64,000 nucleotides of DNA from a virus (lineage: Duplodnaviria > Heunggongvirae > Uroviricota > Caudoviricetes): the IMG/VR virus record IMGVR_UViG_3300036790_000261, positions 24,725-88,724 of that record. The stretch is one strand, 5' to 3'. Within the stretch, counting starts at the first letter, position 1; the number at the start of each line of letters is the position of its first letter. Below, piece after piece: positions 3,454-26,400 of this stretch. Both the position numbers and the translations under genes were made by a program. The notes below the pieces were generated by a model. That model searched no databases. It saw only the letters and a list, made by a program, of their open reading frames with translations, and was not told where the DNA came from.

Positions 3454-3485
3454 CCCTTCCGGCTACCGCCTGAGGGGAGGCCGCC

Positions 3486-4991
3486 GTGGCCACGCTTACC
3501 CGCGTTCAGCACAACAGCATGACGACGACCAGCACCACGGCCACAAACTTCAACACAACCCTTGGTGCCGGGGACACGGTCGGCAACCTGCTGGTAGTCA
3601 CCATTGTGCTGGGCACCAACGGGCTTACGCTGACAGCCCCCTCTGGCTGGGTTCAGGCGGGTTCCTCGGAGGTCGTTTCCGGGTCTCTCGATACCCGGAT
3701 CTATTACCTGGTGGTCAGCTCGGGCAGCGTCACTAGCTTCAACTGGAGCTTCGGCGCTACCGCGCACTCATTCGGCTGGACCATCGACGAGTGGAACAGC
3801 TCTTCCGGATGGCAGGCTAGCCCGGTAGACAGCACCGCCGGGGCCGTTCACACGTCACCGTCGACTGCGGTCAACTGCGGTACCCCGTCGGCGACGACCC
3901 AGGCGTCTGAGCTGTGGCTCGGCGTGCTGTCCTGGGCGAACAGCGGGCAGACGCTGTCGGGTGTGACCGGCGGCTGGTCGACCGGCGATACCGCTACGTT
4001 TACCGGCCAGAACACGCAGACGGCGTTCTTCCAGATCGCCACGACGACCGGCACCCCGAGCCTCGCCGCCACCATCAGCGCGTCCACGGTCAACGCGGGC
4101 GTTGTCGCCACCTTCATGCCCGTCGCCGGCACCACCGTTAACGCGGGGCTCGCCACGGCCACCGGGCTTGCGCTTCAGGTTCCGTCTAACGCCCGGCTCG
4201 CCACCGCTACAGGTACTGCCCTCCAGGTCCCGGCGCCTGCTGGCCTGGCTACGGCTGCCGGCGCTGCGTTCAAGCCGCTGTTCACCGTCCCGGCCCAGCT
4301 GGCGACCGCGACCGGCACCGCGCTGCAGGTTCCGTCTAAGGCGGGGCTCGCCCACGGCACCGGCAGTGCCTTCCAGGTTCCGGCCCCGGCTGGCCTTGCG
4401 CACGGCGCGGGCAGCGCGTTCACCCTCACCCCGTGGAAGGACACGGTCTTCGCGGGGCTGGCCGCGGGCTTCGCCGAGACGTTCCAGCCGACCCCGCGCA
4501 TCCTGCGCACCCCGCTGAACCTGGGGGCGGTGCTGACCGAGGTCACGGCAGACGGCTTCCTGCGTGTAGCCACCGCTGATGCTACGTTTACCCTCGCGGA
4601 CTACGGGGCTACCCTGGCACTAGCTAACTTCGGCGCAAGCCTGACGGGATGGACGATGCAGACGGCCCCGCTGACTCTTAACGAGTTCAACGACGTCACC
4701 ATCAGTATCACCGTGACGCAGAACGGCAGCCCGCTCAACCTGACCGGCGACACGCTTAACCTGCTGCTGAAGACGGCGCCGAACACCCCGGACTCCAGCG
4801 CGCTGATCTTTTCCTCGGCTGGCGGGTCCCCCGCGATCGTCATCACCAACGCAGCTGGCGGCCTCGCTACCGCGATCATCCCGAACACCGACCTCGACGC
4901 CGAGACCTACACGTTCTACCGGCTCGACGTGGTCAGCGGCGGCCTGACCAACACCACGCTGTACGGCAGCGTCGTCTGGATCTCGCTATGA
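3486..4991 (+). CDS. hypothetical structural protein with six ~16-aa tandem repeats (AGLATATGTALQVPSx)
   Basis: Repeat block at nt ~4141-4440; Thr-rich N-terminus. Confidence 0.45.
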   Translation: MATLTRVQHNSMTTTSTTATNFNTTLGAGDTVGNLLVVTIVLGTNGLTLTAPSGWVQAGSSEVVSGSLDTRIYYLVVSSGSVTSFNWSFGATAHSFGWTIDEWNSSSGWQASPVDSTAGAVHTSPSTAVNCGTPSATTQASELWLGVLSWANSGQTLSGVTGGWSTGDTATFTGQNTQTAFFQIATTTGTPSLAATISASTVNAGVVATFMPVAGTTVNAGLATATGLALQVPSNARLATATGTALQVPAPAGLATAAGAAFKPLFTVPAQLATATGTALQVPSKAGLAHGTGSAFQVPAPAGLAHGAGSAFTLTPWKDTVFAGLAAGFAETFQPTPRILRTPLNLGAVLTEVTADGFLRVATADATFTLADYGATLALANFGASLTGWTMQTAPLTLNEFNDVTISITVTQNGSPLNLTGDTLNLLLKTAPNTPDSSALIFSSAGGSPAIVITNAAGGLATAIIPNTDLDAETYTFYRLDVVSGGLTNTTLYGSVVWISL

Positions 4992-9937: not shown

Positions 9938-10207
9938 ATGCGGGGGGACGAAGTGATCTGCAAGAGCTGCCGGGACGCTGCGGCGCTGCTGCCTGAGGAA
10001 GAAGTTATCTACCAGCACCTTGACGGACGGCCGCAGGAAATGCTGAGCGGTCCCGAAGCGGCCCGGAAGATGCACGCCCAGTGCCCCGAGGTCGTCCGCA
10101 GGCAGGCCGGGAACCTGACCGCCGTCGAGCTTGTCGGGTCACCCTGGTGTGAGTGCCAACATATCGTCCCTGTTCTCCGGCCTGCGCTGGCGCCTACACT
10201 TAAATAG
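9938..10207 (+). CDS. small Cys-containing hypothetical protein
   Basis: ATG ORF with good GC3. Confidence 0.3.
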   Translation: MRGDEVICKSCRDAAALLPEEEVIYQHLDGRPQEMLSGPEAARKMHAQCPEVVRRQAGNLTAVELVGSPWCECQHIVPVLRPALAPTLK

Positions 10208-10260
10208 CAGCAGCCGTGGCCTGATCGCCCCAGGAGCCGGACCAGTCTCATTTTGAGAGG
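10207..10260 (+). promoter_or_regulatory. conserved upstream element copy 1 (GCAGCAGCCGYGGCC...GGAGCCGGMCAGT..TCATT..AGAGG)
   Basis: ~54-nt motif ending 9 nt before ATG of major tail protein; second copy at 12187-12233. Confidence 0.4.
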
Positions 10261-10269
10261 GTTCCGCTT

Positions 10270-10722
10270 ATGGGCCGTATCCATGGCCGTAACGGCATGG
10301 TGTACATGTCGATCCTGTCGACCGGCGCCGCGCAGCCGCTGGCGTTCGTTAGCGACTGGACGATGAACTTCACGGTCGCGAAGGTCGACGTCACTGCGCT
10401 CGGCGACACCAACCTCGTCTGGGTCGCGGGCCTGCCCGACGCCTCCGGTGACTTCACCGGCTTCATGGACACGGCGACCAGCCAGACCTACCAGTCGGCC
10501 GTCGACGGCCAGCCACGCAACTTCTACCTGTACCCGACACTGGTTGCCGTCAACGGCGGCCCTGGCAACTCGACGGTCAGTCCCGGCCAGTACTTCTACG
10601 GAACCATCCTTCCTGACTTCAGCGTGTCCGGTGGCGTTGCCGCTGCCGTCACGATGAAGTCGACGTGGAACGCCGCGTCTACCGTGGCGCGGTACCCGGC
10701 TAACGGCGTTCCCGGCACGTGA
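10270..10722 (+). CDS. major tail (tube) protein
   Basis: WTMNFTVAKVDVTALGD ... DASGDFTGFMDT ... NFYLYP pattern typical of siphovirus major tail proteins; sits upstream of chaperone pair and tape measure. Confidence 0.6.
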   Translation: MGRIHGRNGMVYMSILSTGAAQPLAFVSDWTMNFTVAKVDVTALGDTNLVWVAGLPDASGDFTGFMDTATSQTYQSAVDGQPRNFYLYPTLVAVNGGPGNSTVSPGQYFYGTILPDFSVSGGVAAAVTMKSTWNAASTVARYPANGVPGT

Positions 10723-10827: not shown

Positions 10828-11328
10828 ATGCCCCCACGCAAGACCCGCCAGGTGGCGCCCGTTACTGACGCGGAAATCGCAGACACTGCGGAAACCCTCA
10901 ACCCAGCCGTGCCGCAGGACACGGTGCCTGAGGCGTTTAAGCCGAAGCGCGCCCGTGCTGCCCGCCGGGTTCAGTCGGCGACCGGTGACCCGAAGGTCCG
11001 GCTGCCTGAGGGCAAGCGCGCCGTCGAGGTCGCGGACGGGGTGCTGACGGCGGCGATCGCCGGGCGCAGCTTCCGGCTGACGGAGACGGTTGGCCTGATG
11101 CCGCTGATGGAGTGGGTCGCGGCGTCCGAAGGGGTCGACACCAGCAACGTGCCGACGATGCTCAGCTTCTACCGCGTGCTGCAGGACCTGGTGCATGAAG
11201 ACGACTGGGTGGCGTTCCGGGGGCACACCCGCGAGCAGAAGTGCGACGACACGGAGCTCATGGCGTTCCAGGCAGCGGCTATGGAAGCGCTCGCCGCGCG
11301 CCCTACCAGGCGGCCCGCAACCTCCTGA
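10828..11328 (+). CDS. tail assembly chaperone (G-like)
   Basis: Position between major tail protein and tape measure; acidic C-terminus. Confidence 0.55.
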   Translation: MPPRKTRQVAPVTDAEIADTAETLNPAVPQDTVPEAFKPKRARAARRVQSATGDPKVRLPEGKRAVEVADGVLTAAIAGRSFRLTETVGLMPLMEWVAASEGVDTSNVPTMLSFYRVLQDLVHEDDWVAFRGHTREQKCDDTELMAFQAAAMEALAARPTRRPATS

Positions 11329-11798
11329 GGTGGCTGCTCGGGCACTGGGCGAAGGTGAACGGCGACTTCCTGCGGGCTAGCGGGCACGGGCTAGAGGAGC
11401 TGGACGTGCGGGAGATGTGCGACGCTGCCTACTCCGCGATCGTGGCGGACGTTGAACGGAACTTCTACGCCCAGGTCGCGGCCGGAGCGCAGTGGAAGGA
11501 CAGCACGGACCCGCTCGGCGACACCATTGAGCGGCTGGAGGAGCGCCTCGGGCTGCGTGAGGACCCGGAGGCGATCGCCCTGGCGATGCACAAGGCGTTC
11601 ATGCTGTCCCAGGGCAAGGAGTGGGACGAGACGCCGGTCGGGGCGGGCAGCGGGCAGTGGTGGGACCAGGATGTGGAGTTCAGCGACATGAGCGACCTCG
11701 ACCAGGAAGCGAAGCGCCGCACCGCCGCCGAAACCAACCGGGGCCTGTTCGCGAAGAACCTGAAGCCGAAGAACCTGAAGCCGAAGGAGACGCTGTGA
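11241..11798 (+). CDS. tail assembly chaperone extension (T-like), probably made by -1 frameshift from 10828 ORF
   Basis: ORF in -1 frame overlapping last 88 nt of the G-like gene; canonical G/GT synteny; slippery site not identified. Confidence 0.4.
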   Translation: MRRHGAHGVPGSGYGSARRAPYQAARNLLRWLLGHWAKVNGDFLRASGHGLEELDVREMCDAAYSAIVADVERNFYAQVAAGAQWKDSTDPLGDTIERLEERLGLREDPEAIALAMHKAFMLSQGKEWDETPVGAGSGQWWDQDVEFSDMSDLDQEAKRRTAAETNRGLFAKNLKPKNLKPKETL

Positions 11799-11810
11799 CC
11801 TGGACACGCC

Positions 11811-12170
11811 GTGGCTAACTCGGTCAAGCTCGACCCCGCCGCGATCGAGGACCTGCTGAACTCCCCCGACGGGCCGGTGGGCCTAGTGATCGAGGAGCTG
11901 TCGGAGAAGGCCGCTGACATCGCCAAGATCCTCGTCCCGGTGATGAAGCGGCGCAAGTGGAACCCGCTGTACCAGTACGGGCCGCCTGGGGTGACTAGCG
12001 CGAGCATCCGGGCATCCGGGTTCCGCTACAACAAGCTCGGCCAGCTGTACTCCGGGGTAAACGTGAATTACGGGCCCACGCTGTTCCTGCAGCGGCCTGC
12101 CCGGCAGATCCACAGCCCGCAGTACATGTTCATGTCCCGGGCGCTAGACATCGTCACGGCCCTGGGATAA
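11811..12170 (+). CDS. hypothetical protein
   Basis: ATG ORF, good GC3. Confidence 0.4.
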   Translation: MANSVKLDPAAIEDLLNSPDGPVGLVIEELSEKAADIAKILVPVMKRRKWNPLYQYGPPGVTSASIRASGFRYNKLGQLYSGVNVNYGPTLFLQRPARQIHSPQYMFMSRALDIVTALG

Positions 12171-12186
12171 CACCGTAGAGTTATCG

Positions 12187-12233
12187 CAGCAGCCGCGGCC
12201 CGTCACCGGGAGCCGGCCAGTTCATTCAGAGGA
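12187..12233 (+). promoter_or_regulatory. conserved upstream element copy 2
   Basis: Aligns with 10207-10260; overlapped by 3' end of minus-strand HNH gene. Confidence 0.35.
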
Positions 12234-12767
12234 AGGGGGCAGGTGGCCCGGCTGCGCACGGCGCTTGTTTGCCTGCTGTTCCTTCCGCGTCGCCCAGCGC
12301 ACGTTACCCGGCTCGTAGTTCCCGTCGTTGTTGACCCGGTCCAAGGTCAGCTTCGGGTCCGGCTTCAGCCCGATCAACTGCTCGATCTCTGCGGCGAAGG
12401 TTCCGAAGTACCGCCACGCCAAGCAAACAGTGATGCCCCTGCCGCCGTAGTTCCGGTAGGCCAGCTGCTTCGGGTTGAAGCAGCGGTTCATCATGCCCGA
12501 CCAGGTTACGTACAGCGGGTGCGTACGCGTCAGGCCGTGCGTGGTCTTGTCCCGCTTGTTCGCTTCTGCCGTTCGAATGCCGTTGGCAACAGCCTGCGCG
12601 CGAACACGCGCTTGCTCTTCCGGGCGCTGTCGAGCCGCCTTGACCGCTGCGCGCTGAGTGCACCAGCACACCTGCGTGCTCCCCTTGAGGAGCTGCGTGA
12701 TCAGGGTTTCGTAAACGTTTCCGCAGTCGCAGAGCATGCGGGCGTAGCGCTTACGGTTTCGCCTCAC
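12222..12767 (-). CDS. HNH homing endonuclease
   Basis: Close paralog of 29233 gene (HPLYVTWSGMMNRCFNP...YRNYGGRGITVC...DRVNNDGNYEPGNVRWATRKEQ); opposite strand to surrounding late genes. Confidence 0.75.
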   Translation of the reverse strand: MRRNRKRYARMLCDCGNVYETLITQLLKGSTQVCWCTQRAAVKAARQRPEEQARVRAQAVANGIRTAEANKRDKTTHGLTRTHPLYVTWSGMMNRCFNPKQLAYRNYGGRGITVCLAWRYFGTFAAEIEQLIGLKPDPKLTLDRVNNDGNYEPGNVRWATRKEQQANKRRAQPGHLPPSSE

Positions 12768-13116
12768 CTCCGGCTCAACAACGACAGCTGGGCCGAAGCG
12801 CTGGCCTGTACTGACAGTCTGCGTCTCCGTGTCCCCTCTTACCGTATTTCGTCGCCTATCGTACGCGACGACCGAGGCGCTCAGCGCACGGGAGGGGGGT
12901 GGTAGGGCGTGGCTAGGTTGATTGGCGACGCATATTTAAATAGTCATCTATCCGCAGACCGACCAGTTCGGCCCGCAGCTAGAGGCCGCCGTCGGCAAGT
13001 GGACGAAGTCGCTGCGGCCGAACGTCAACGTCACCCCGCAGCTGGACAAGTCCGGCATCGCTAAGATCGAGGCTGACCTCAAGGCCGCGAAGGCGAACAT
13101 TGACGCCTACGTCACC

Positions 13117-16100
13117 TTGTCGGCTGCGTCAGAGGCAAAGGTCCAGGCTCAGCTGGACGCCTTGCACACGAACTTCACCCTCGGCACGAAGATTGACCCG
13201 GTAACGCTCGCCGCAGACAAGGCGAGCCTTCAGGCGTACCTCGACCGGAACATCGTTGCAGCCCCGATCAAGACAGCGCTTGACCCGGCATCGCTCGCGG
13301 CGTCGAAGGCAAGCATCGAAGCCTACATGTCCGGGATACCAGCCGGCCTGGACTTCAAGCTTGACCCGGTGAAGCTCCTCGGGGTCAAGGCGGGTATCGA
13401 CCGGTTCCTGTCTTCGAACACGGTGACCATTCCGGTTCAGGCCAATACCACCCAGGCAGTCAGCCGGCTAGAAGGCCTGGAAGCGGACACCTCCGTCCTG
13501 CAGACCCGGCTGATGAACCTGCGGGCAGAAGTGAACGACGTCGGCGCTGAGGCGAAGATCGCCGCGCTGCAGGTGCAGGCCGCCGCGTTCGCCAAGACCC
13601 TGGCCGGCGCCGGAAAGGGCGCGGACTTCGAGCCGCTGGAAGCCTCGCTGCTCGGCATGCAGTCTTCGTACGCGAAGCTGATCGCCGCCCAGGAGGCCGA
13701 GGACGAGGAGATCAAGCGGCAGACCGGTTTCTTCGGGGCGCTCGGGCTAGCCGGGCCCGGCTCGCTGATCCACATCACCGACATCCTGAACGCTTCCCTA
13801 CCCGCGGTGAAGCTGTTCGGCGGCGCGATCGGTGACATGTACGCGACGATCCGCGGCGGCGACGCCGAGCTGCCGACGGTCGCTAACCACCTGTTCAACC
13901 TTGCCAGCTCCGCGCACCTGACCGCTGAGGCGGCGATCGAGTTCACCGCGATCTGGGCTCCGGCAATTATCGCGGTGACCGCGTTCGGCCTGGCCGCTAC
14001 CCCGACGGTCATCACCATCGGCAAGCAGCTGCAGAACATGAACACCGCGGCCAAGGGCACCGGCCAGGCGTTCGCGTCCCTGGCGACCCAGGGGGAGCAC
14101 GTCACCGCGGCGGTTAAGCCAGCCGTGCTGGAACTGTTCGGTGAGGGGCTTGAGGCCCTGAAGAACGACTCGGGCACGCTAGGGCCGATCCTGGCTGCCC
14201 TGGGCAGCGGGTTCGACCGGCTGGGCGCGCAGGCAGTTGTCGCATTCGGCAGCGGCGGGTCCGGTGGCATCTTCAAGTCCGGCAGCGCCGACGCACTGGC
14301 CCTGGCTAACTCGTTTACCGCGCTCGGGTCAATCGCGGGGACGTTTTTCAAGCTGGTCCCCGGGTACGCCGAGATCCTGCTCGGCTTCGGCAATGACGTA
14401 TTGGGTGCTTCGGCAGACGTGCTCAAGTTCGTCGAGCCGGTACTGAAAATCGGCGTCGCCCTGCACGGCGCCATCTTCTACGGCGGCCTGTTCGGCACCG
14501 CTGTTGGCGCAGGACTTAACAAGCTTGTCCCGGTTGCCGCGAGCGTAGCCGGGGGCATCGCTAACCTAGCCGGGAAGTTCGAGCTTCTCGGCGGCGAGTC
14601 CGGCAAGCTGGCAACCGGCGCGGCTGATGCGGCAACCGCCCTTGACGGTATCGCCGGCGGCCCGGTCATCGTCGGCCTGGCGCTGCTAGCTGGCGCGGTC
14701 GCGGCTGTCGTGCTTTACATGAAGGCGGCTAGCGACTCGGCGGCGGCATTCAACAAGTCGATTCAGTCGACGGTGCAGTCAGCGAGCGTGCTGAACCTGC
14801 AGAAAGCGATTACGACCGGGCTGACTGAGACTACGGTCCAGTACACGGCTGCGCTGAAAAACGTCGCGCAGGCAAACAACACAGCAGCTGCCTCCGCCGG
14901 GAGCGTTCAGTTCCGGTACTCAGGCGTAACCACCGCGCAGCAGGCGGCTACCACGGCAGCCGGCGAGTACCAGGGCGCGCTGAGCCAGCTGACCACCCAG
15001 CAGACGAACGTTAACAGCAACCTCCAGGCGCTAGCCGACACTTTTCACACGACGCTCCCCGGCGCACTCGCCATCGCCAACGGCGCGCAGATTACCAGCA
15101 ACCAGCTCATGGGCTCCGGTGCGCAGAACATCGCCACCATCAAGGCGCAAGCGGTAGGTTACGCCGATCAGCTGGCCGTGATGACCGCAGGCACCGGCAC
15201 GCTGAACCAGGCGCTGAACGCGCTGAGCGTCACCCAGTCGGCACAGGTTACTGACGCGCAGAAGCTTGCCCAGGCGTACGCGTCGTGGATCGGGATCGTC
15301 ACCGGCGGGGACAGCGCGTTCACCTCGTTCGAGCAGTCGCAGCAGACCCTGGTAGACACGCTCGGCGGCAAGGTAACGCCCGCTGTCGTCACGGCGACGA
15401 CTGCCTCGACTAGGGCCGGGCAGTCCATCACCGCCCTGGGCGGGACCAGTTCGACGGCGAGCTCGTCGCTGACCAAGCTAGCCAAGGGCGGCAGCGACGT
15501 CACCACCTCGCTGTCGAACACGGCCAAGGGCGGCCAGGACGTCACTAATTCGCTGGACACCACGACGAGTGCGACGACGAAGGCCGCCAGCGCTGCGGAC
15601 ACCCTGTCGGTCAAGGTCGGGAACATCACCGAGAAGTTCGACCTGGCCGGCGCGGCGATGAACGGCACGTCGGTTGCGTCACTAGCCGCCCGGCAGGCGT
15701 TTGACCAGCAGATCGTGTCGGCAACCAGCCTGTACGGCGCCTTGCAGACCATGGCGGCGGCTAGCGGGAATAACGCGACCGCGCAAGTAGCGCTAGCTAA
15801 GTCTGGCAAGGACCTGGTCGCGCAGATGCTGCCGCTAGCTGCTGGCAGCAAGGAGGCGACGGCTGAGGTTTACGCCCTGGCGCAGATCGCCGGGTACGCC
15901 GGCCCGGACAGCTTCCAGAAGCTCGCCCAGTGGGTCGGCAATACTTCGAACGCCGAGTCTGACCTCAACACGCAGCAGACGATCCTTACGCTGAGCACGG
16001 CAAACCTGACCGCGGCGGCGAAGAACCTGGCAACGGCGGTCAGCCAGGAGATCACTCAGGCTGAAGCAGCGGCGATCGCCAAGACCGAGGACTTCAGCAA

Positions 16101-17997
16101 CACCACCCTGAAGCTAGCGCAGGCGTTCCAGGCTAGCGATGACTCGGCGAACTCCGCGGTGACCACTCTGTCCGGCACGTTTTACTCGTCGCTGATCAAG
16201 GCCGGAGATCAGACCAAGGACGCCACGCAGCAGGTAAACGCGTTCCTTAGCCAGCTCGGCGCGTCGCCTGAGGTGATCTCCCAGGTAGACGCCAGCCTGG
16301 CCAAGCTGCCGGACGGCACCCAGCAGGCTGTCAACGCGATGAAGAGCCTGAACGACGCGTCCCAGGCGAATCTAGCCACCCTGCGGTCGATCCCTGGGAC
16401 GCTCGCTACTAACACAGCTAGCTACAACGAGCTGTTCAACGCGATCGTCAAGGAAGACCAGGGGCTCGTCAACAACACCAGCCAGGCGGACACGACGAAG
16501 GCGGCGTTCATCGCATTCGCCGAGCAGGGCCTGAACCTGACCTCGTCGGCGGCGGCGAAACTGTGGGCGACGCAGAACGCGCAGAACCTGGTCGCGACCG
16601 CGTCCAAGGCGAGCACCACGGAGAACGCGTTCATCGCCATGGCCAAGAGCGGCCTGAACCTGTCGACGTCGTCGGCGCAGACCCTGTGGAACACGCTGCG
16701 GCTGCAGTACCTGGACACCCTGGTCACCAAGGGCAAGGGAGCGGAGAGCCAGTTCATCGCCCTCGCCAAGAGCGGCCTCGACCTGACCACGTCATCCGCC
16801 ACGCAGCTGTGGAACACCCTCAAGCAGCAGTACCTGGACACCCTGGCGTCCAAGTCGACTGAGACCGAGAAGTCGTTCGAGGCGACGGCTAAGCAACTCG
16901 GGCTAACGAAGACCGCTGCTGACCAGCTGTGGACTTCGATGCACACACTTGCCGCGGGCAGCCCGTACAGCGCGAACGTCAACGCGACGATCAGCGCGAC
17001 GGGTGAGGTCCAGGCCATCGAGTCGTCTGGCGCCGCGGCGAACATCGTCAACGCGGCACTCGGGGACCTGCACTTTTCCGCAGCGGGCGGTACGGTGCCC
17101 GGCGGAGTTCACGGGCAGGACTCGGTGCACGCCGTTCTCGCTCCCGGTGAGCTGGTCATCCCGAGCCAGCACGCGCCCAAGTTCGCCGACATGGCCCGTA
17201 AGGCGAGCATCCCCGGGTTCGCGGCCGGCGGTACCGTCGCGGCGGGTATTGACGCGATCGTGCCGACCTCGGTCAAGGACACCGGGCAGTTCGCGACGAG
17301 CACGATCGCGGCTTTCGTGAAGAACGTGCAGGGCGCGATGACTGCCCTGCTGGCCGCTCCGGGGAACACCCTCGCGTACGAGCCCGTCGTCCTGAACGTC
17401 ATGAAGATGCTGGACATCCCGCTGACCGACCTGTCCGCGATCATGCAGCAGATGGCGACAGAGTCCGGGGGTAACCCGCTGGCGGTCAACAACTCGGACA
17501 GCAACGCGGCGGCAGGCACCCCGTCCACCGGCCTTTTCCAGGTGATCGCCCCGACGTTCGACGCGTTTGCCGGGCCGTTCCGCAACACGGGGCCGTTCCT
17601 GAACGGCGTGTCAGTTAACCCGACCGCCAACACGTACGCAGGCTTGAACTACGCGATTCACCGCTATGGCATCGGCAACCTGACCAGCGTCCTCGGCCAG
17701 GGGCACGGCTACTCGTCGGGCGGGATGGTGAACGAGCCTGTCCTCGGGGTGGGCCTGAACTCGGGAACGCCCTACAGCTTTGCCGAGCGGGGCAGTGAGT
17801 ACGTCGGGCCGATCAGCGGCAACGGAACCTCGAACTCCGGGCTGCCCGGGATGTCGTCGTACCAGGCGAGCACGCTGATCAGCCTCATGCAGCAGCAGAA
17901 CAAGCTCCTCGCGCAGATGCCGTACAGCCAGGCGCAGGCAATCAACCAGGCGAACGCGACCGGGGTCAGAAGGGGGTATTTCGCGACAAGCGGCTGA
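13117..17997 (+). CDS. tape measure protein with C-terminal SLT lytic transglycosylase motif (5' end likely upstream, frame open back to 12940)
   Basis: 1626-aa repeat-rich alpha-helical protein; ESGGNPLAVNNSD...GLFQVI SLT motif; first canonical start is TTG 13117 but repeats continue upstream. Confidence 0.8.
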   Translation: MSAASEAKVQAQLDALHTNFTLGTKIDPVTLAADKASLQAYLDRNIVAAPIKTALDPASLAASKASIEAYMSGIPAGLDFKLDPVKLLGVKAGIDRFLSSNTVTIPVQANTTQAVSRLEGLEADTSVLQTRLMNLRAEVNDVGAEAKIAALQVQAAAFAKTLAGAGKGADFEPLEASLLGMQSSYAKLIAAQEAEDEEIKRQTGFFGALGLAGPGSLIHITDILNASLPAVKLFGGAIGDMYATIRGGDAELPTVANHLFNLASSAHLTAEAAIEFTAIWAPAIIAVTAFGLAATPTVITIGKQLQNMNTAAKGTGQAFASLATQGEHVTAAVKPAVLELFGEGLEALKNDSGTLGPILAALGSGFDRLGAQAVVAFGSGGSGGIFKSGSADALALANSFTALGSIAGTFFKLVPGYAEILLGFGNDVLGASADVLKFVEPVLKIGVALHGAIFYGGLFGTAVGAGLNKLVPVAASVAGGIANLAGKFELLGGESGKLATGAADAATALDGIAGGPVIVGLALLAGAVAAVVLYMKAASDSAAAFNKSIQSTVQSASVLNLQKAITTGLTETTVQYTAALKNVAQANNTAAASAGSVQFRYSGVTTAQQAATTAAGEYQGALSQLTTQQTNVNSNLQALADTFHTTLPGALAIANGAQITSNQLMGSGAQNIATIKAQAVGYADQLAVMTAGTGTLNQALNALSVTQSAQVTDAQKLAQAYASWIGIVTGGDSAFTSFEQSQQTLVDTLGGKVTPAVVTATTASTRAGQSITALGGTSSTASSSLTKLAKGGSDVTTSLSNTAKGGQDVTNSLDTTTSATTKAASAADTLSVKVGNITEKFDLAGAAMNGTSVASLAARQAFDQQIVSATSLYGALQTMAAASGNNATAQVALAKSGKDLVAQMLPLAAGSKEATAEVYALAQIAGYAGPDSFQKLAQWVGNTSNAESDLNTQQTILTLSTANLTAAAKNLATAVSQEITQAEAAAIAKTEDFSNTTLKLAQAFQASDDSANSAVTTLSGTFYSSLIKAGDQTKDATQQVNAFLSQLGASPEVISQVDASLAKLPDGTQQAVNAMKSLNDASQANLATLRSIPGTLATNTASYNELFNAIVKEDQGLVNNTSQADTTKAAFIAFAEQGLNLTSSAAAKLWATQNAQNLVATASKASTTENAFIAMAKSGLNLSTSSAQTLWNTLRLQYLDTLVTKGKGAESQFIALAKSGLDLTTSSATQLWNTLKQQYLDTLASKSTETEKSFEATAKQLGLTKTAADQLWTSMHTLAAGSPYSANVNATISATGEVQAIESSGAAANIVNAALGDLHFSAAGGTVPGGVHGQDSVHAVLAPGELVIPSQHAPKFADMARKASIPGFAAGGTVAAGIDAIVPTSVKDTGQFATSTIAAFVKNVQGAMTALLAAPGNTLAYEPVVLNVMKMLDIPLTDLSAIMQQMATESGGNPLAVNNSDSNAAAGTPSTGLFQVIAPTFDAFAGPFRNTGPFLNGVSVNPTANTYAGLNYAIHRYGIGNLTSVLGQGHGYSSGGMVNEPVLGVGLNSGTPYSFAERGSEYVGPISGNGTSNSGLPGMSSYQASTLISLMQQQNKLLAQMPYSQAQAINQANATGVRRGYFATSG

Positions 17998-18075: not shown

Positions 18076-18148
18076 GCGCGTGTAGCTCAGCGGATAGAGC
18101 ACCTGCCTACGGAGCAGGGTGCCGGGGGTTCGATCCCCTCCACGCGCA
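18076..18148 (+). tRNA. tRNA-Arg (anticodon ACG)
   Basis: Acceptor GCGCGTG/CACGCGC, D-loop TAGCTCAGCGGATAGAGC, anticodon loop CTACGGA, T-arm GGGGGTTCGATCCCC. Confidence 0.85.
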
Positions 18149-18151
18149 CTC

Positions 18152-18249: not shown

Positions 18250-21200
18250 GTGCCGGCCTACTCAGGCAGCTCCTTCCCGTACTGGATGACGATCCAGGAC
18301 AACGGCTCTACGGCTAACGCCGGCGCTGTGTCTGAGAACATCCCGGTCACGGTCGGCACCAGCTACACGTTCACCGTCTCTGCTGCCTACTCCGGGTTCT
18401 TCTCCGGCGGCGTCAAGCTCACCCTGGAGTGGTTCACCTCCGGCGGGACGCCGATCAGCACGGTGACCGCGACCAGCGGCGCGATGTCTCCCGACGAGAT
18501 CGTCACCTTTTCTACGGCCTCGACCGCAGCCCCGTCTAGCGCAGCGTTCGCGATCGCCACCGTTGCGCTGAACGGGCTGCCCGGCGAGGCGAACGTGCTG
18601 TCGGTCTTCGCGGCGGCCGTCACCCCGGCAGGCTCGGTGCCGGTCAACCTGAACTACGCGTTCACCTGGACGTTCTGGCCGTGGACGCCGTCTAACAGCG
18701 CAACCCTCGGCTGGCAGGCCGACCAGTTCCTGCTGAACAACTCCGACTCGCTCACTCTGGCGCACACGATCGAGCTGATGGGCGGCGCCGGCGGTGTCTC
18801 CTGCCAGGCGATCCCCGAGCTACTCGACTCTAACGGCGTCGGCCCCCGTTACCGCATTCTCGCGCCCCCGTCGCTGAACTCCGCGGCGTTCGGCTACGAG
18901 TCGTCTTACGACCTGAACGCCCCGCAGCCGACCCAGGACGTCGTCGCGTCCATGCTGCTCGACGGCGAGCGCCCCTTCGGTACAAGGGCATCCAACAGGA
19001 CCATCTCGCTGCCGGTGATCATCTTCGGCACGCTCGCCGGCGGCATGCGCCAGGTTCTGGCGGCCCGCGAGTACCTGATGTCGCTGATCGACCAGCAGAC
19101 CTGGGAGATCGCCTGGACCCCGGCCGACACCGGTAAGCCGCTGATTTACGACGCGTTCCGGGCGCTGCCGTCCGTCCCGGTCTACGGCATGAACCACTCG
19201 GCTGGCGGTGCCGCGAGCAACTCGACGGTCGGCCGGGCGAACTACCCGATCGCGCTGATCACGCTGACGGTCCAGGCGCTGCCCTACGGGCGCTCAGACA
19301 TCGACGGCGTGCAGACCCTGCCGGTCAGCAACAGCCTGATCAACGCGCCCGTGCCGCCCGGGGCGCAGCTTCTCGACAACTTCTCCGTGGTCACCCCCGG
19401 CATGGGCTGGGTGCAAGACGAGTCCAAGTTCGTTCAGGGCGGTACCGCAAGCATTCGCTACGACGCGCCCGTTCCCCTGTCCAGCCCGTACCCGGCGGCT
19501 GTCTACGCGGCTGCGCTCAGCTCGCCGGTCAGCATCATGGGGCTGCCTGCAGTATCGGTCTGGCTCGGCCAGGCGTATGACACCCAGTGGCCCGCGGCGC
19601 CGACGTTTGCCTCTAACGTCACCCTGGCCTGGACGCTGCTGGACGGCAGCGAGCGCGCCCTGTCATTCTCGACGACTCACAATGCCGCGGCCTGGGGCGC
19701 GTCCCCGTCCACTCCCAAATGGACCCTGGTGTCAGCGCCGGTTCCGCAGGGGAACCAGAACTTCTCCTACGGGAACGTCGTCGCCTACTCAGTGCGGCTT
19801 ACCAACTGGGCCGGCTCGGGCAACACCGGCTTCGTCCGGATGCACGCCTGGCTGAACGACCTGACCGCCAACCCGCAGACCGTCGCCAACCAGGCCAGCC
19901 CCCGCGGCATCTTGTACAACCTGTTCTCACTGCCGGGCAGCGCGCGGGCGCCGGTCAACGTGCAGTGCCAGCTGCCCGCTACCGCGCCCGTCGTGCAGGA
20001 GATCACCAGTCCCGCGTCAGGCACCTGGATCGTGCCGCCCGCGGTGTACGCGCTGCAGGCTGAGGCGTGGGGCGGCGGCGGCAGCGGCGCTACCGTCAAC
20101 CAGTCCCGCCCGACGGCAGGCGCAGGCGGCGGCGGCGGTGAGTACGCGGCTGAGTCGCTGCTGGCAGTTGTCCCCGGGACGGCGATCCCCTACAGCCTTG
20201 GCGCCGGCGGCACCCCGTCCCAGATTCAGCAGACGGTCATCGACCAGACGGTGCCCGGCCTGCACAACTGGGTCGCCCCGGCGAACGTTACCTCCCTGCT
20301 GGTGGAGTGCTTCGGCGGCGGCGCGGCAGGCGCGGCGGGAGCTGGTGGCGGTGGCGCGGGCGGGTACTCGTCCTCGACCCTCACCGTCGTCCCCGGCACC
20401 TCTTACCTGATCTCCGTCGGCGCCGGCGGCATGGCGAACACGGGCACCACCTCGGCGGACAACGCTGCCCGCAACGGCGGTGCCTCCTGGTTCGGCGCGT
20501 CGACGGCGACCGGCCCGTCTAACGCGCTAGTCGCTGCCTCCGGCGGTACCTCACCGCAAACCGGAACCGCAAGCGGAGGCTCAGGCGGTAACAACGCCGG
20601 GTGCCCTGGCACGACGCAGTTCCCCGGTGGCAACGGCGGTCATGCCCCCGGCGGCGGCGGAGGCGGCGGCGGCGGCTGCGGCGGGCACAGTGGTCACGGC
20701 GGGCACGGCCGGGCGCCTAACGCCAACGGCAACGGCGCCGCCTGGTGCGGCAACGGCCAGGGCGGTAACGGCAACGGGCAGGGCGGCGGCGGCGGCAACG
20801 GCTCGTCCGCGCCCGGTACCCCGTCGGGCGGCAGTTCTCCCGGCGGCGGCGGCGGCGGCGGCTTCTGCGGCTCGTTCTTCCAGTTCGCCGCGCAGGCCGC
20901 GCAGGCAACCCCCGGCCAGGCGCAGGTCAACTACATGGGGGCCAACGGCGCCAACGGCATGGTGCAGCTGACCTACGCGATCGGCAACGGAAACCCGGTT
21001 AACGGCGGGGCGACCACCTTCGGCTCCAGCGCCACGACGGGCGTCACCGTGACTGCTAACGGCGGCTCCAGCGCAGCGATCAACGCGGCGACGGGCGCGG
21101 CGGGCGGTTCCGGCTCGGCGAACACGGTTCACGCGTCCGGGGGTGCGGGCGGGCTGGACACCGGTACCTCGATGGGCAGCTGGATGCTCGGCCCGTCGGT

Positions 21201-23484
21201 GAGCTCCCTGTTCCAGACGCTGTCCTCGTTCAGCTACACCACGGCGACGCACACCTCGGGCACCGCGGGCAGTTCGTGCGCGCAGGGCGTCGGCATGGTC
21301 CTCGTCCAGTCGACTGCGCCGGTGCAGGACCTGACCGTGCAGGACTCGGCGGGCAACGTCTACCTGAACCAGGGGCAGCAGGGCGGCGGCACCGGCGGGG
21401 CAACGGGCTGCGTGTACCTGTTCACCGCGCCGCTGGTCTTCCCGATTACCACCGGCACCACCCTGGCCCTGGCCTCGGCGACCGCCCAGCAGTACGGGGC
21501 GATCTGGTACGCCTCACCGTGGGCGCTGGACGCCACCGGCTCCAACACCGGGCAGGCCAACGGCACCGGCACCGCGCTGAGCGGCCAGTTCGGCGTAGCC
21601 GACAACGTCTCCGCGCAGTACGAGCTCGTCGTCGCCTTCAACGCCACCAGCCAGAGCTTCGGCACCCCGACGTTCGGCGGTAAGCTCTGGTACGCCCCTG
21701 GCTCGACGAGCTCACTGACCTCGGGCAGCCTCTCGATGCAGGCGTACGTCGGGCTGAACGAGGGAGGCGGCACCGGAAGCGCTAACGGTGACGCCTTCGC
21801 CCTAACGCTGGGCGGCTCGTCGAGCTGGGCGGTGCTGTGCATCCCGATCCTGGCGGCGAGCCAGCAGGCGTACGTACCGCAGCTCGACTGGCGGGCCGGC
21901 ACCACCCCGGGCACCTCTACTACCTGGGGCACGGACTGCTCAATCTCCGCTGAGGGCATGATCGCGGTGGTCGGCATGGCCGGCTCCGGCAGCGGCATCA
22001 CCGCAGGCCCGTCGGCTGTCTCTGACCAGGGCGGGAACGCCTACACGATCCAGAGCACCACGCTGCTGCCCGCTAACGGCGGGGTAATGTTCCTGGCGAC
22101 CGCCCCGGTGACCGCAGCGATGGCGCAGGGCGCGTCCGGTACCGTCAGCTGGGGTCATGCGTCGGGCGCACCCAATTACTGGACGGCCGCGTACTGGATT
22201 CCCAACGCAACAGGCCTCGACGGGGTGTCTGCTGTCACCGGCAACAGCGGCACCCCGTCGGGGACGTACGCACCGAACAGCACGAGCCCGATGGCGCTGG
22301 CGTTCCTCGGCAACGCGGTCAGTGTTACCGCTGCCTCCGGCATGGCCGCGCCGTGGAACTACCTTGACCTCAACAACCAGAACTACCTGACCGGCCAGAC
22401 GTGGGCCAGCCAGGTTACCGACCGCACGGCCGTTACCGCCGCGACCACGATGACGTCGGACCCGTGGGGGCTGATGCTGATCGGCTTCGCGATGTCCGTG
22501 CGGGCAGCAGGCGGCGGCGCGGCGGGCGGGCCCGGTAACGCGGGGTACCCGTCTACCTTCTACGCGGGCGGCCCCGGGTACTCCGGCGGCGGCAAGGGCG
22601 GGCTCGGCGCGCAGTCCCTGAACACCCAGGGCGGCGGCGCCAGCCTGCCCGGAGGCGGCGGCGGCGGGTCGTTCGGCTCGACCACCACCTCGATCGAGGG
22701 CGGGCAGGGCGGGCAGGGCGCGGCCAGGCTTACCTATTCTCCGCCGCTCACCCCGTTCAACACGCTGCTCGTGCACCGGCCCGGCACTAACGCGAACCAG
22801 AACCTCAACCCGCTGGTGCCCATCCCGTTCTCCGACGTGCCGAATAACACCCAGTACGTCGTCGCCAACGCGGTGCAGCCGAACGTCAACGCGGTGTTCA
22901 ACTCGACCTACTCGGTGCTGCTAGTCAGCCACACCTGGAACTCCGCGACCCTCGGGGTAGCCCGCACGGTCACCGTGACCATCTCGCAGTTTGAGTACCA
23001 GGGCGGCCCGGCCAGCTCGGTGCAGGTCAGCCGGTCGATCGTGCCCGCTACCGACATCGTCAACGGCATCGTCAACATGGGCGACGTCACGTTGCCGATC
23101 AAGGACTACGCCAAGTTCAACGACCAGTCGTACTTCACGGTCTCGATCAACGACACCGACCAGTCGGACCGCTACATGGACGTGCTTTTCCTCGATACGA
23201 CCGGGCAGACTGTCCTGCTGAATATCGACCCGTCGCAGCCGGGCTACAACAGCTACGTCAACTACTACATCGACGAGCCCACCGCCGACCGGGACCTCGG
23301 GTTCATCGGCGGCACCACCCAGGACCGGCAGCACAACGTCTCGCTGATGGAGTACACGTTCATCTCCGGCGGCCCGCTGTACATCGGCGCGGGCGACAAC
23401 CTGCTGCTCACCTACAGTCCAAGTGGGGCGCCCAGTCTAGGGGTATCGTATTCTCCTCGCTGGTACCTAGATAGAATAGTGTGA
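18250..23484 (+). CDS. minor tail/fibre protein, glycine-rich (Gly_rich-type repeats)
   Basis: 1744 aa; repeated modules GGGGxGxxYAxE...VVPGTxYxIxVGAGG; poly-Gly/(GGC)n tracts. Confidence 0.6.
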   Translation: MPAYSGSSFPYWMTIQDNGSTANAGAVSENIPVTVGTSYTFTVSAAYSGFFSGGVKLTLEWFTSGGTPISTVTATSGAMSPDEIVTFSTASTAAPSSAAFAIATVALNGLPGEANVLSVFAAAVTPAGSVPVNLNYAFTWTFWPWTPSNSATLGWQADQFLLNNSDSLTLAHTIELMGGAGGVSCQAIPELLDSNGVGPRYRILAPPSLNSAAFGYESSYDLNAPQPTQDVVASMLLDGERPFGTRASNRTISLPVIIFGTLAGGMRQVLAAREYLMSLIDQQTWEIAWTPADTGKPLIYDAFRALPSVPVYGMNHSAGGAASNSTVGRANYPIALITLTVQALPYGRSDIDGVQTLPVSNSLINAPVPPGAQLLDNFSVVTPGMGWVQDESKFVQGGTASIRYDAPVPLSSPYPAAVYAAALSSPVSIMGLPAVSVWLGQAYDTQWPAAPTFASNVTLAWTLLDGSERALSFSTTHNAAAWGASPSTPKWTLVSAPVPQGNQNFSYGNVVAYSVRLTNWAGSGNTGFVRMHAWLNDLTANPQTVANQASPRGILYNLFSLPGSARAPVNVQCQLPATAPVVQEITSPASGTWIVPPAVYALQAEAWGGGGSGATVNQSRPTAGAGGGGGEYAAESLLAVVPGTAIPYSLGAGGTPSQIQQTVIDQTVPGLHNWVAPANVTSLLVECFGGGAAGAAGAGGGGAGGYSSSTLTVVPGTSYLISVGAGGMANTGTTSADNAARNGGASWFGASTATGPSNALVAASGGTSPQTGTASGGSGGNNAGCPGTTQFPGGNGGHAPGGGGGGGGGCGGHSGHGGHGRAPNANGNGAAWCGNGQGGNGNGQGGGGGNGSSAPGTPSGGSSPGGGGGGGFCGSFFQFAAQAAQATPGQAQVNYMGANGANGMVQLTYAIGNGNPVNGGATTFGSSATTGVTVTANGGSSAAINAATGAAGGSGSANTVHASGGAGGLDTGTSMGSWMLGPSVSSLFQTLSSFSYTTATHTSGTAGSSCAQGVGMVLVQSTAPVQDLTVQDSAGNVYLNQGQQGGGTGGATGCVYLFTAPLVFPITTGTTLALASATAQQYGAIWYASPWALDATGSNTGQANGTGTALSGQFGVADNVSAQYELVVAFNATSQSFGTPTFGGKLWYAPGSTSSLTSGSLSMQAYVGLNEGGGTGSANGDAFALTLGGSSSWAVLCIPILAASQQAYVPQLDWRAGTTPGTSTTWGTDCSISAEGMIAVVGMAGSGSGITAGPSAVSDQGGNAYTIQSTTLLPANGGVMFLATAPVTAAMAQGASGTVSWGHASGAPNYWTAAYWIPNATGLDGVSAVTGNSGTPSGTYAPNSTSPMALAFLGNAVSVTAASGMAAPWNYLDLNNQNYLTGQTWASQVTDRTAVTAATTMTSDPWGLMLIGFAMSVRAAGGGAAGGPGNAGYPSTFYAGGPGYSGGGKGGLGAQSLNTQGGGASLPGGGGGGSFGSTTTSIEGGQGGQGAARLTYSPPLTPFNTLLVHRPGTNANQNLNPLVPIPFSDVPNNTQYVVANAVQPNVNAVFNSTYSVLLVSHTWNSATLGVARTVTVTISQFEYQGGPASSVQVSRSIVPATDIVNGIVNMGDVTLPIKDYAKFNDQSYFTVSINDTDQSDRYMDVLFLDTTGQTVLLNIDPSQPGYNSYVNYYIDEPTADRDLGFIGGTTQDRQHNVSLMEYTFISGGPLYIGAGDNLLLTYSPSGAPSLGVSYSPRWYLDRIV

Positions 23485-23498
23485 CGGGGGGTACCTGA

Positions 23499-26400
23499 GT
23501 GACCTCGACCCCCCCGAAGCCAAGCCTGCTCAAGTCCACCGCGCTCGCCCAGGCCACGGCGGTGGCCAACCGGCTGAACTCCCTGCTGCCCACGGTGCCG
23601 AGTGCCGAGTCGCCGGTCACCGTGTACCAGGCGGGCACCATCGGGGTGGGCGGGCAGCTGAGCGCGCCTACCTCGGTGTTCCCGGTCGGCACCGGCTATT
23701 ACGGGGTGTGGACGGCGCCGGACCTGAACGACGGCAAGCCGTACACGATGCAGGTGGAGTGCTTCGGCGGCGGCGGCGGCGGCGGGGGCGGGTCCTCCAC
23801 TTCGGGCGGCGGCGGCGGGGGCGGGGCTGAGTACGCCCGGGAGACCTCGTACCCGGTCAAGCCCGGCGTCAACTACGTCTACGTGGTGGGAGTACCCGGC
23901 TCGGCGGGCACGGCGAACAACGACGACAACCAGGGCGCGACCGCGGGCGGCACCGGGGGGCTGACCGTATTTGACATCGCCGGAAGCGGCGTCGCGGGCG
24001 GCGTGCAGGCCAACGGGGGCCAGGGCGGGGATGTCGGCAATACCGGCATCGGCGGGAACGGGGGCCTGGGCAGCTTCAACACCACTGAGTTCCAAGGTGG
24101 CCCGGGTGGTACCAACCTTCCAGGCGGCGGGGGCGGTTCCGGCGGCCAGGGCGGTACCGACAATCCCATCGCACTGCTGAACGCAGGGCTGCTGAGCTCG
24201 CCGCCGGTCGCCTGGTACCTGATGAACGACGCGTCGTCCAACGGGCAGCTGAACGACAACAGCGGCGACGACAACCCGGCTAACCCGGGCAGCTACGGCG
24301 GCGGCGGCCTCGCCTACGGGCAGCCGGGAGCCCCGTCCCAGGTCCCCGCGTACGTCAGCCCCGGCAACCCGCCGAGCTCCCCCAACCCGACGACCGCCGG
24401 AACCCAGCTGCGGTTCGTCCTCGCCCAGCTGAACCAGCAGTCCGGTTACGCGCTGTGCCCCGGCTTCGCCTTCTCCGGGCACCAGGTCACCGTCTCGGGC
24501 TGGGTGACCCCGGACCCGACGGGCACCTGGGGCAACACCGCGACCGGCTCGCGGGCGGTCATCGCCACTAACTGCACGGGGTACGCGAACTCCAGCACCG
24601 CGGGCGTCGCCCTGTACTTCAAGAACTCCGGCACCAGCGCTCACCCGAGCTGGACGCTGAACTTCTACTGCGCTAGCTCAGGCTCGCACCAGACGGTCAG
24701 CGTCAGCGTCCCGCCGGTCGCGAACACCCCGGTCTACGTGGCGGCCACCTTCAGCTCCGGCGCGATGACCGTGTACGTCAACGGCACCTCGGCGGGCACG
24801 GCCACCGCGGGCTTCAGCAGCCTGCCCGGCTTCCCGACGGTGCCGTTCGGCGTGACGCTGGGCGCGGACCCGCGGATCACCACCGACTGGTTCTTCGGCT
24901 ACATGTCCAACCTGTGGTTCTCGCCCGGCGTGCTGAGCTCAGCGGGCGTGACCCAGGCGTTCAGCGGCTCCGGCGGCAGCTCAACCGAGGGCGGGGCCGG
25001 CGGCGGCGCGTCGGGCGGGCCGGCGGCACTCGGCGGCGCCGGGGCGGCAGGCAGCGGGTCGACGGGCGGGGCCGGGGGGACACCCGCTACCCAGCCTGCG
25101 ACAGACGTCGGCCTGAACACCCCGGCCTCAGCGGGCATCGCGGGCGCGGCGGGTAACGCCGGCAACCCGGGTATCACCGGCGCGGCGGGCGCGGGCGGCG
25201 GCGGGGCAGGCAGCTCGACGTCACCCCCGAATATCGTCACCGTCCAGGTGCCGTTCGTCACGGCGGCCTCTTACTGCGGGACGGACGCGACCGGCGGCAG
25301 CGCGGGCACGGTGTACAACCCGGTCATCCAGGGCGCCACCGGGCGGCTGTTCACCGGCGGCCAGTCGCAGGACGCGGCATCGGGCTCCAAGAACTCTCTG
25401 CTGGTCCTGCCGCCCAGCCTGGCGGCCAGCCTGCAGCCGGGCAGCTTCACCGTGCTCCGGGTGACCCTGACGGTAACCAGCGCTAACCCGCAGGCGGCGC
25501 AGAACGCGCTGATGCAGGTCGGCTGGGCGGCCGACACGTTCCTGCCGATCACCTACGACGCGAGTGACACCGCGGGCTCGGCGGGCGTGGTGGAGATCCC
25601 GGCCGGGGCGTTCACCGTCACCGCGGACCTGACCGAGTCTCAGCTGGGCGCGTTCCTGCAAAACGGCGGCGCTAAGGCGCTGGTTCTCGGCCCTGGCCCC
25701 AGCCCGACCTTCGCCGCTTACAACTCCGACACCGCGGCTGACTTCTACACGGCTGTCTACGGGCCGGGCGCGGTAGACAGCGCGGGCAACAGCCTGGCCC
25801 CGTTCCTTACGGTCACCTACGCGCAGTCGACGACCGTGCAGCAGGGGTCGCCCGGCGGCGCGGGCGCGGTGCTGCTGACCTTCCTCAACCAGGCGCAGAC
25901 ACTGGTCGGCAACTGGACCGCCGCGGACGGCATCAACGCCTCCGGCGGCCAGCTCACTGAGACGACGGTCGTACTCGGCTCGACCTTGCAGGACGCTGCC
26001 CGGATGAACGCGATCCGCGAGCAGGTCAGGGCTGAGGTCAAGGCGGAGAACCGCGCGATGATCAGGGAGGCGATGGCCCGGCTCGGCTCGGTTCCGGGGG
26101 CGCCGGGCACCCTGCTCGGCTACACGGCGGGCATGACCACGGTTACCCAGACGACGCCGGGTACCTACACGTTCACCGTGCCTTCTGACGTCACCTCGCT
26201 GAGCGTCGCCTGCTGGGGCGCGGGCGCGGGCGCTACCGGGGGCAGCACCAGCCAGGGGCAGGGCGGCGGCGGCGGCGGCGCGTACGCGGGCGAGCCGAAC
26301 TACAACGCCGCCCCGGGTGACGTGCTCACTTACATTGTCGGGGCGGGCGGCGCCGGGGACCACGTCGGGTCGAATAATTCGCCGGACGGCGGGTTCAGCG

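Follow-up and report, generated by a model that had tools for sequence, protein, structure and literature searches.

A four-base insert beside an endonuclease-like cassette in the tape-measure gene of an uncultured soil phage: a candidate recoding site

Large terminase genes of the Streptomyces phage phiHau3 and of the prophages StrepC.1 / S. catenulae carry inserts of 7 or 10 nucleotides (nt) that begin with UUA (PMC10732093; reviewed in PMC5009743). Bypass at the UUA of the phiHau3 terminase was shown by mass spectrometry in E. coli, and for phiHau3 and the two prophages a conserved junction length favoured bypass over frameshifting (PMC10732093). In phage T4, the homing endonuclease gene mobA and the 50-nt bypass insert of gene 60 form one mobile cassette (PMC5009743; bioRxiv 10.1101/2022.08.31.505936), and the insert, which moves with mobA, is thought to protect against cleavage (PMC5009743). 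In mycobacteriophage Corndog, an HNH gene is inserted just upstream of the tape-measure gene (tmp), whose start is non-canonical; peptides map upstream of any canonical tmp start, splicing was looked for and not detected, and either ACG initiation or bypass was put forward by the authors (PMC4351075). Here we describe a candidate recoding site that, judged from its sequence, is a variant of these three systems and occurs in two alleles. It lies at the 5′ end of the gene for the tape-measure protein (TMP) in a 64,000-nt stretch of phage DNA (IMG/VR record IMGVR_UViG_3300036790_000261, positions 24,725 to 88,724; hereafter the window), which comes from an uncultured siphophage-like genome of ~122 kb and 65% G+C.

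The frame break at the 5′ end of the tape-measure gene

The TMP of the window is encoded in frame 1, which is open from 12940, directly after a TAA at 12937-12939, and the resulting 1685-codon frame (12940-17997) matches tape-measure PHROG families (E=1e-26). As the original prediction had noted, the first in-frame ATG, GTG or TTG after 12940 is TTG 13117, and inspection of the sequence found no convincing Shine-Dalgarno (SD) sequence before it. The upstream stretch nevertheless looks coding, again as predicted: the 59 codons at 12940-13116 have a G+C content at third positions (GC3) of 0.90 and a ratio of nonsynonymous to synonymous substitution (dN/dS) of ~0.5, and the window TMP aligns from its first residue to the related protein P0001, with 43% identity over 100% of a 400-aa query. 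Database gene calls put the TMP start at TTG 13117 or 13162.

From these observations it had been concluded that the gene has no canonical start codon and might begin at a non-canonical one, such as ATC 12946 or CTG. The first conclusion is wrong in detail and the second is not supported, because the canonical start GTG 12909, which sits in another frame (frame 3) behind a strong SD, encodes the conserved N-terminus of the family, MARLIGDAY. The nonapeptide matches the N-termini of P0001 (MARLIGEAYIVVYPQTDTF) and of 17 related loci, M-A-(G)-R-L-I-G-D-A-Y-I-V-I-Y-P-Q being the beginning in 18 related loci, and the nucleotide differences within RLIGDAY are all synonymous. On this comparison the anomaly at the TMP 5′ end is a frame break behind a normal start, not an absent start. 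The features of the break are as follows; HNH-free relatives are those without the endonuclease-like gene described below, and L063 is a second, diverged phage.

12890..12899, plus strand: SD sequence GGGAGGGGGG of the relocated TMP start, with 9-nt spacing to GTG 12909
12909..12935, plus strand: TMP codons 1-9, GTG GCT AGG TTG ATT GGC GAC GCA TAT (MARLIGDAY), frame 3
12936..12939, plus strand: four extra bases TTAA (UUA plus one base), a gap in 14 HNH-free relatives and TTAC in L063
12940..17997, plus strand: TMP body, frame 1, beginning IVIYPQTDQF; matches PHROG TMP families, homology from residue 1

The TTAA at 12936-12939 splits MARLIGDAY (frame 3) from IVIYPQTDQF (frame 1), puts the remaining 1685 TMP codons in the +1 frame and creates the palindrome TATTTAAATA. 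Stops are present in both other frames at the insert (TAA 12937-12939 in frame 1 and TAG 12941-12943 in frame 2), and therefore any shift into frame 1 would have to take place at or after 12939. A tandem duplication of flanking bases was considered as the origin of the insert and rejected, as the sequence does not match; simple fill-in of a staggered cut is therefore no explanation.

The insert is real, reproduced, and recurs in a second phage. Over 8.4 kb around the site, a JGI contig (3300037258; 122,178 bp) and the NCBI assembly GCA_036490375.1 (contig DASXDZ010000073.1; 122,349 bp) each show 0 mismatches to the window, and a 24-kb JGI contig from sample 3300036781 is identical throughout the 5.9-kb locus, TTAA included. 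A Logan contig (SRR11833507) is likewise identical as far as it reaches, ending at 12537. Such identity rules out an assembler-specific error. Assembly error in general, which the original prediction had offered as one cause of the anomaly, is unlikely in view of three identical assemblies and a 4-nt insert at the same codon boundary in the diverged L063.

Related loci and the inserted cassette

Data from IMG/VR, JGI, ENA, NCBI and Logan yielded 18 further loci of this phage group. The 14 without the minus-strand open reading frame (ORF) all have a canonical GTG or ATG start and an uninterrupted M-x-(G)-R-L-I-G-D/E-A-Y-I-x-I... junction of constant length, with no insert. The comparison with HNH-free relatives that had been suggested as a check thus yields the pre-insertion junction, ...A-Y-I-x-I... 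in 14/14, and the insert-free (naive) TMP start sequence is GTGGCCCGGCTGATCGGCGACGCGTACATCGTC.

L063, a forest-soil contig in ENA from a different study, encodes an endonuclease-like protein 63% identical to that of the window. Its TMP gene reads TTG ACC GGT AGA CTT ATC GGC GAC GCG TAT-TTAC-ATC GCC ATC CTC, that of the window GTG GCT AGG TTG ATT GGC GAC GCA TAT-TTAA-ATA GTC ATC TAT. MTGRLIGDAY of L063 is in frame 0, the initiation frame, and IAILPEASMF... follows in the +1 frame. Both inserts are 4 nt long, begin with TTA and occupy the same codon boundary. The RLIGDAY codons of the two phages differ at 5 nt in four codons, all synonymously, and across the family this heptapeptide is invariant while synonymous change is saturated (pS 0.6-1.3). 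Both sides of the break thus appear, from this comparison, to be constrained as protein in two diverged insert-bearing genomes, which is the usual comparative signature of recoding.

The window, L062, L063, L064 and, as a more distant case, L163 carry an endonuclease-like gene at the same site and in the same antisense orientation, and the 14 other relatives lack it; this patchy presence is the pattern expected of a homing element. The features of the cassette in the window are these:

11811..12170, plus strand: conserved 119-aa gene, in all relatives directly before TMP, the anchor of the locus, with homologues upstream of TMP in 22 loci
12176..12242, plus strand: displaced native TMP leader, a conserved element with SD AGAGGAAGGGGG, aligning with the TMP upstream regions of L001, L003, L004 and L157
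12243..12254, plus strand: remnant of the original TMP start, GTG GCC CGG CTG (M A R L), the same as nt 1-12 of the TMP gene in L004
12255..12908, no strand assigned: inserted cassette of ~654 nt, missing from 14 related loci; left junction within 12255-12262
12222..12767, minus strand: HNH-like (PacI-like) endonuclease-family ORF, matching PHROG families annotated as HNH endonuclease (E=2e-42)
12243..12905, plus strand: shadow ORF of 220 codons from the stranded native start through the cassette, with its stop TAG 12903-12905 lying 3 nt before GTG 12909

Homology to the relatives stops after 12254 and resumes at GTG GCT AGG TTG ATT GGC... (12909). The first 12 nt of TMP stand on either side of the cassette as an imperfect duplication (9/12 identical, the three differences synonymous). 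By alignment, the cassette was inserted after codon 4 of the original TMP gene. Displacement or duplication of the start region by an HNH cassette, one of the possibilities raised originally, is therefore what the locus displays: the native leader, its SD and GTG GCC CGG CTG were left behind at 12176-12254, and a second start stands at 12909. In HNH-free relatives the 119-aa gene, which has no match in Pfam, NCBIfam or PHROG, is separated from TMP by 60-190 nt. The recipient is intact up to nt 12 of TMP, and a break near there is therefore suggested; one side would have been joined non-homologously into a donor cassette, and the other repaired by homologous copying of the donor TMP 5′ end, insert included.

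A minus-strand HNH homing endonuclease had been proposed at 12222-12767. The ORF stands, as does its HNH match in PHROG; the label itself comes from the PHROG annotation and a weak fold match only. The family is very large (>7900 matches, including 1006 phage records). No Pfam, NCBIfam or PDB sequence match was obtained for the ORF, and a Foldseek search of PDB returned nothing significant. The canonical Asp-His position corresponds to Asp143-Arg144 (Arg invariant and Asp in >=90% of 60 homologues), the motif having been placed by eye and not by a tool. For its last ~10 codons the ORF uses the strand complementary to the old TMP start, and an extra coiled coil in the protein is confined to the L062/L063 clade. 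Truncation of the window ORF at its C-terminus was considered and dropped, since the closest homologue, in L064, ends at the same place; Corndog gp56 was also rejected as a homologue (E=0.9; gp56 is HNH_3+AP2). About 20 conserved in-frame codons (…TGQRFGPAVVVEPEV; segment ~12768-12812, within 12768-12830, minus strand) lie upstream of the first ATG, GTG or TTG of the ORF, and the window copy may be decaying or may itself use a non-canonical start.

The shadow ORF is the codon-mirrored frame of the minus-strand ORF. A long sense-strand shadow ORF crosses the antisense cassette in 3/4 close loci (the window and the L062 and L064 equivalents), and in the window and L062 it begins at the stranded native TMP start. 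It may keep the transcript translated, as polarity protection or for coupling to TMP initiation; we give this little weight, because an open mirrored frame is expected in high-G+C DNA.

The ~60-nt leader element (…TTAT/AAAT-nGCAGCAGCCGYGGCC…GGAGCCGGnCCAGT…) occurs at 10196-10262 and 12176-12240, preceding the major tail gene and the original TMP start, and is also found upstream of TMP in L001, L003, L004, L157 and L158. Within it lies a small hairpin of 8 pairs (GCCG…CGGC), which is conserved and shows one compensatory change. The element may act as a late promoter, as a site of processing or in translation; a promoter and terminator scan of 11700-13300 was not informative. The degenerate third copy of this element that had been claimed at 12934-12990 does not hold up, as that segment is without the GCAGCAGCCGYGGCC...GGAGCCGG core of the two real copies. 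Its GACCAGT belongs to the conserved codons for T-D-Q-F, which insert-free relatives have too, and its TTAAATAG arises from the 4-nt insert.

The other cassette-bearing loci vary in what lies at the TMP start. In L062 the cassette follows the start codon directly and leaves ACG CCA AGG CTC..., where a canonical in-frame start is lacking; in L170, an HNH-free cousin of L062, GTG CCG CGC CTT... is intact. In L064 the old start position reads ATC, with a GTG three codons before it, and the TMP start of L163 is normal. Anomalies at the TMP 5′ end were thus seen in 3/5 cassette-bearing versus 0/14 cassette-free loci (Fisher p ~0.01, with categories drawn post hoc). The 4-nt insert itself was present in 2/5 versus 0/14 (Fisher p ~0.06), an association that is weak at such small numbers.

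The arrangement in L062 is that of its reverse strand (~3480-3560 and 4244-4262), compared with L170 (3350-3400). The native SD and GTG of L062 lie 750 nt upstream, and the ACG at the start position stands 6 nt after AGGTGA and before PRLIGDAY..., an arrangement that matches the Corndog tmp situation.

Among INPHARED phages, neither near-identity nor protein searches gave a match to the locus, to the N-terminus of TMP, to the major tail protein or to a 501-aa structural ORF, and a degenerate TMP-start pattern retrieved only the already known relatives from IMG/VR and JGI metagenomes and nothing from GTDB genomes. The specific pattern GGCGACGCNTATTTANAT was discarded, as all of its 88 matches in viral and genome collections were chance occurrences in unrelated contexts. 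A scan of the window for other TTA-linked frame switches, which was crude and too permissive, gave no convincing second site.

Decoding of the frame break

The best explanation, which we hold to be about as likely as not, is that full-length TMP is made by recoding at the UUA, through either a 4-nt hop or a +1 shift. As we picture it, a mobile cassette with an antisense HNH-like gene landed after TMP codon 4 and brought its own SD and TMP 5′ end. The ribosome would start at GTG 12909, make MARLIGDAY and pause with peptidyl-tRNA-Tyr on UAU 12933-12935, a pause proposed because the A-site codon UUA is extremely rare. The peptidyl-tRNA would then detach and re-pair 4 nt downstream, on UAA 12937-12939 in the window or UAC in L063, and decoding would restart at AUA 12940 (AUC in L063), giving MARLIGDAY-IVIYPQ..., collinear with the uninterrupted homologues. 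Alternatively, a +1 shift after decoding of UUA would add one Leu and leave the skipped base free to vary (A versus C). The predicted junction peptides are LIGDAYIVIYPQTDQFGPQLEAAVGK for the 4-nt hop, LIGDAYLIVIYPQTDQFGPQLEAAVGK for the +1 shift after Leu and LIGDAYPQTDQF... for a hop to UAU 12949; LIGDAYLIVIYPQ... is a further peptide predicted to cross the junction. By analogy with T4 mobA/gene 60, the resident allele may in addition owe to the insert a resistance to the putative nuclease of the cassette.

Codon usage is consistent with such a site. UUA 12936-12938 is in frame with GTG 12909, and a UUA stands at the same place in L063. Per 1000 codons, TTA is used 0.8 times, TAT 1.6 times versus 26 for TAC, and ATA 0.6 times; AAT and AGT are also rare. 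Most of the TTA codons counted in this genome fall in spurious antisense ORFs. No phage tRNA-Leu gene was found in the 81 kb examined of the ~122-kb genome; the only tRNA genes found in these 81 kb were those for Arg-ACG, Thr-GGT, Gln-CTG and Met-CAT. The proposed take-off and landing codons of L063, UAU and UAC, both encode Tyr and lie 4 nt apart. Contigs of ~122 kb were assembled for this genome from at least two samples, and the phage can therefore be presumed viable.

Several observations weigh against recoding. The proposed landing codon in the window is UAA, not a Tyr codon, so that re-pairing would involve two positions out of three; frame 1 has its next true Tyr codon, UAU, at 12949-12951, and a hop that far would lose the residues IVI. 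For the +1 shift, tRNA-Leu on UUA would re-pair poorly with either UAA or UAC, with a mismatch at the middle position, and the P-site re-pairing in the +1 frame that characterizes classical programmed +1 frameshifting of the prfB and Ty1/Ty3 type is not seen here, although rare A-site codons are present. No stimulatory RNA structure was predicted, the fold of 12885-13010 being no more stable than shuffled sequences (z = 0.58), unlike the phiHau3 sites. The rarity of UUA is that of the phage's own codon usage, and the real supply of tRNA-Leu(UAA) in the host may differ from it. The insert-bearing alleles found number only two, cassette and insert are not obligatorily linked (the cassette-bearing L064 and L163 have no insert), and the three window-type assemblies are by their sequence one clone, which speaks for reproducibility, not conservation. 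Recoding is here inferred from DNA comparison in an uncultured phage. TMP is needed in few copies per virion, and leaky, unprogrammed frameshifting or downstream initiation might be enough for it.

In a first alternative there is no recoding at all: the first nine codons would be cut off, TMP would be translated from the internal TTG 13117 or from the near-cognate AUA 12940 or AUC 12946, and its N-terminal residues would be dispensable. We think this unlikely. Gene callers do pick 13117 or 13162, weak initiation could suffice for a protein present in so few copies, L062 and L063 have an in-frame ATG 12-14 codons past the junction, and Corndog tmp may begin at ACG (PMC4351075). However, none of 13117, 12940 and 12946 is preceded by an SD sequence, and the 59 codons before 13117 keep their GC3 of 0.90, an open frame and homology from the first post-insert codon. 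A strong SD, a GTG and a synonymously diverged RLIGDAY are moreover kept in both insert-bearing phages, which is unexpected if they are untranslated or unlinked to TMP.

A second alternative, which has no decoding solution, appears improbable to us: either a frameshift would have arisen recently and without selection in a genome that is defective or hitch-hiking, or the four bases would be a systematic error of sequencing. It would fit with the 100% identity of the window-type contigs, which represent one clone, and with the exclusively metagenomic origin of the data, the searches having found no isolate relative. The insert is, however, present in three assemblies from at least two samples, and a 4-nt insertion is atypical of Illumina sequencing; the diverged L063 also has a 4-nt insert, at the same boundary and with the same leading TTA. 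The downstream frame is intact over 1685 codons, and ~122-kb contigs were obtained from more than one sample.

Removal of the cassette from the RNA as an intron-like element, joining the stranded start at 12243-12254 to TMP (for example as MARL + IVIYPQ...), is very improbable: a native SD and start are kept upstream of the window cassette and the L062 cassette directly follows a start codon, but no Rfam group I or II intron or other RNA family was detected at E<=1 in 11000-14500 on either strand, the cassette is almost wholly the antisense of a protein ORF, splicing would discard the post-cassette SD, GTG and conserved IGDAY, and the analogous Corndog insertion was unspliced by RT-PCR (PMC4351075).

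Genome context and comparison with known systems

The surroundings of the TMP gene have the layout of a tail module, with the major tail protein gene as a further feature:

10270..10722, plus strand: major tail protein gene (PHROG 10528)

Between this gene and the 119-aa gene, the overlapping ORFs 10828-11328 and 11241-11798, the second in the -1 frame, have the layout of the tail chaperones G/GT. TMP contains internal tandem repeats within 16496-16854 (three 123-nt units, 66-78% identity) and 15466-15549 (42-nt units); length modules of tape-measure proteins typically have such repeats. After TMP come two very large ORFs (18250-27464), encoding 1744 and 1321 aa, with long Gly-rich GGC-repeat tracts and a G+C content of up to 74%.

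The four tRNA genes lie at 18076-18149 (Arg-ACG), 51829-51901 (Thr-GGT), 52302-52375 (Gln-CTG) and 56442-56517 (Met-CAT), the first of them within the tail module, directly after TMP. The 16-nt palindrome ACTGCCACGTGGCAGT occurs in five copies (2524, 18153, 30777, 50892 and 56556), one of which stands just after the tRNA-Arg gene, between TMP and the next tail gene; these palindromes could serve as terminators or as operators. In 53842-59611, a region of minus-strand genes and tRNA genes, there are dense families of repeats of 37-50 nt whose GC-rich ends are inverted (TGGCCGGGGCGT…TTCG…TGGCCCCGG); the spacing of the copies is often 37-38 or 153 nt. Towards the end of the window, the DNA polymerase A region is apparently split (window 62035-63036; L156 1249-7290, beyond the window end), with a T5orf172-domain gene and another ORF between the D5_N/exonuclease part and the polymerase part, and a DUF559/MTES_1575 endonuclease-like gene lies nearby. 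The genome seems rich in selfish-nuclease insertions.

If recoding at the UUA is correct, the annotations by gene callers truncate the window TMP by 68-83 residues, and other genes with an endonuclease cassette at the 5′ end are likely to be misannotated in this way. UUA-dependent bypassing would then take in, besides Streptomyces terminase genes, a tail gene in a lineage of uncultured soil phages, and a gap as short as 4 nt would have been maintained through divergence. It would also tie 'savior indels' to endonuclease cassettes and offer a general explanation for puzzling tmp starts beside HNH genes, including that of Corndog, puzzling since 2015.

Among the known systems, the phiHau3 type shares with the window a high-G+C phage, an essential late gene and a rare in-frame UUA at the head of a short insert that uninterrupted homologues lack and whose length is 1 mod 3. 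In both, the homologues have a conserved junction length, favouring skipping over an added residue, and the proposed take-off and landing codons are cognate in L063. The window differs in the length of its insert (4 nt versus 7 or 10), in a landing codon that overlaps the UUA and is UAA, and in the position of the site, at codon 10 of a tape-measure gene and not within a terminase gene. It is also without a predicted local RNA structure, is linked to an endonuclease-like cassette, and is known from its sequence.

T4 mobA/gene 60 resembles the window in that an endonuclease-family gene adjoins an essential gene with a non-coding insert, which is missing in endonuclease-free relatives and would need to be skipped by the ribosome. 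As in T4, the insert is confined to genomes with the adjacent endonuclease-like gene (2/5 versus 0/14), and by analogy target-site immunity is a plausible role for it. The gap in the window is, however, 4 nt versus 50, there is no take-off hairpin, and the nascent peptide has nine residues; the protein families are unrelated, and two cassette-bearing relatives of the window are insert-free. It is possible, if doubtful, that the endonuclease cassette travels with a 'savior' insert that the ribosome bypasses in what would be the shortest of the known programmed hops (4 nt, with peptidyl-tRNA-Tyr crossing a hungry UUA from UAU to UAA/UAC at codon 10 of an essential tail gene) and that doubles as target-site immunity, which would make this the second natural lineage of its kind after T4 mobA/gene 60.

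Corndog and the window have in common an endonuclease gene immediately 5′ of tmp and coding sequence before a far-downstream annotated start, and the relative L062, and only it, has ACG at the tmp start position. Corndog gp56, in contrast, is an HNH_3+AP2 protein encoded on the same strand as tmp and is unrelated to the window ORF. The window has a canonical GTG followed by a 4-nt frame break, and the evidence is proteomic for Corndog and genomic for the window phage.

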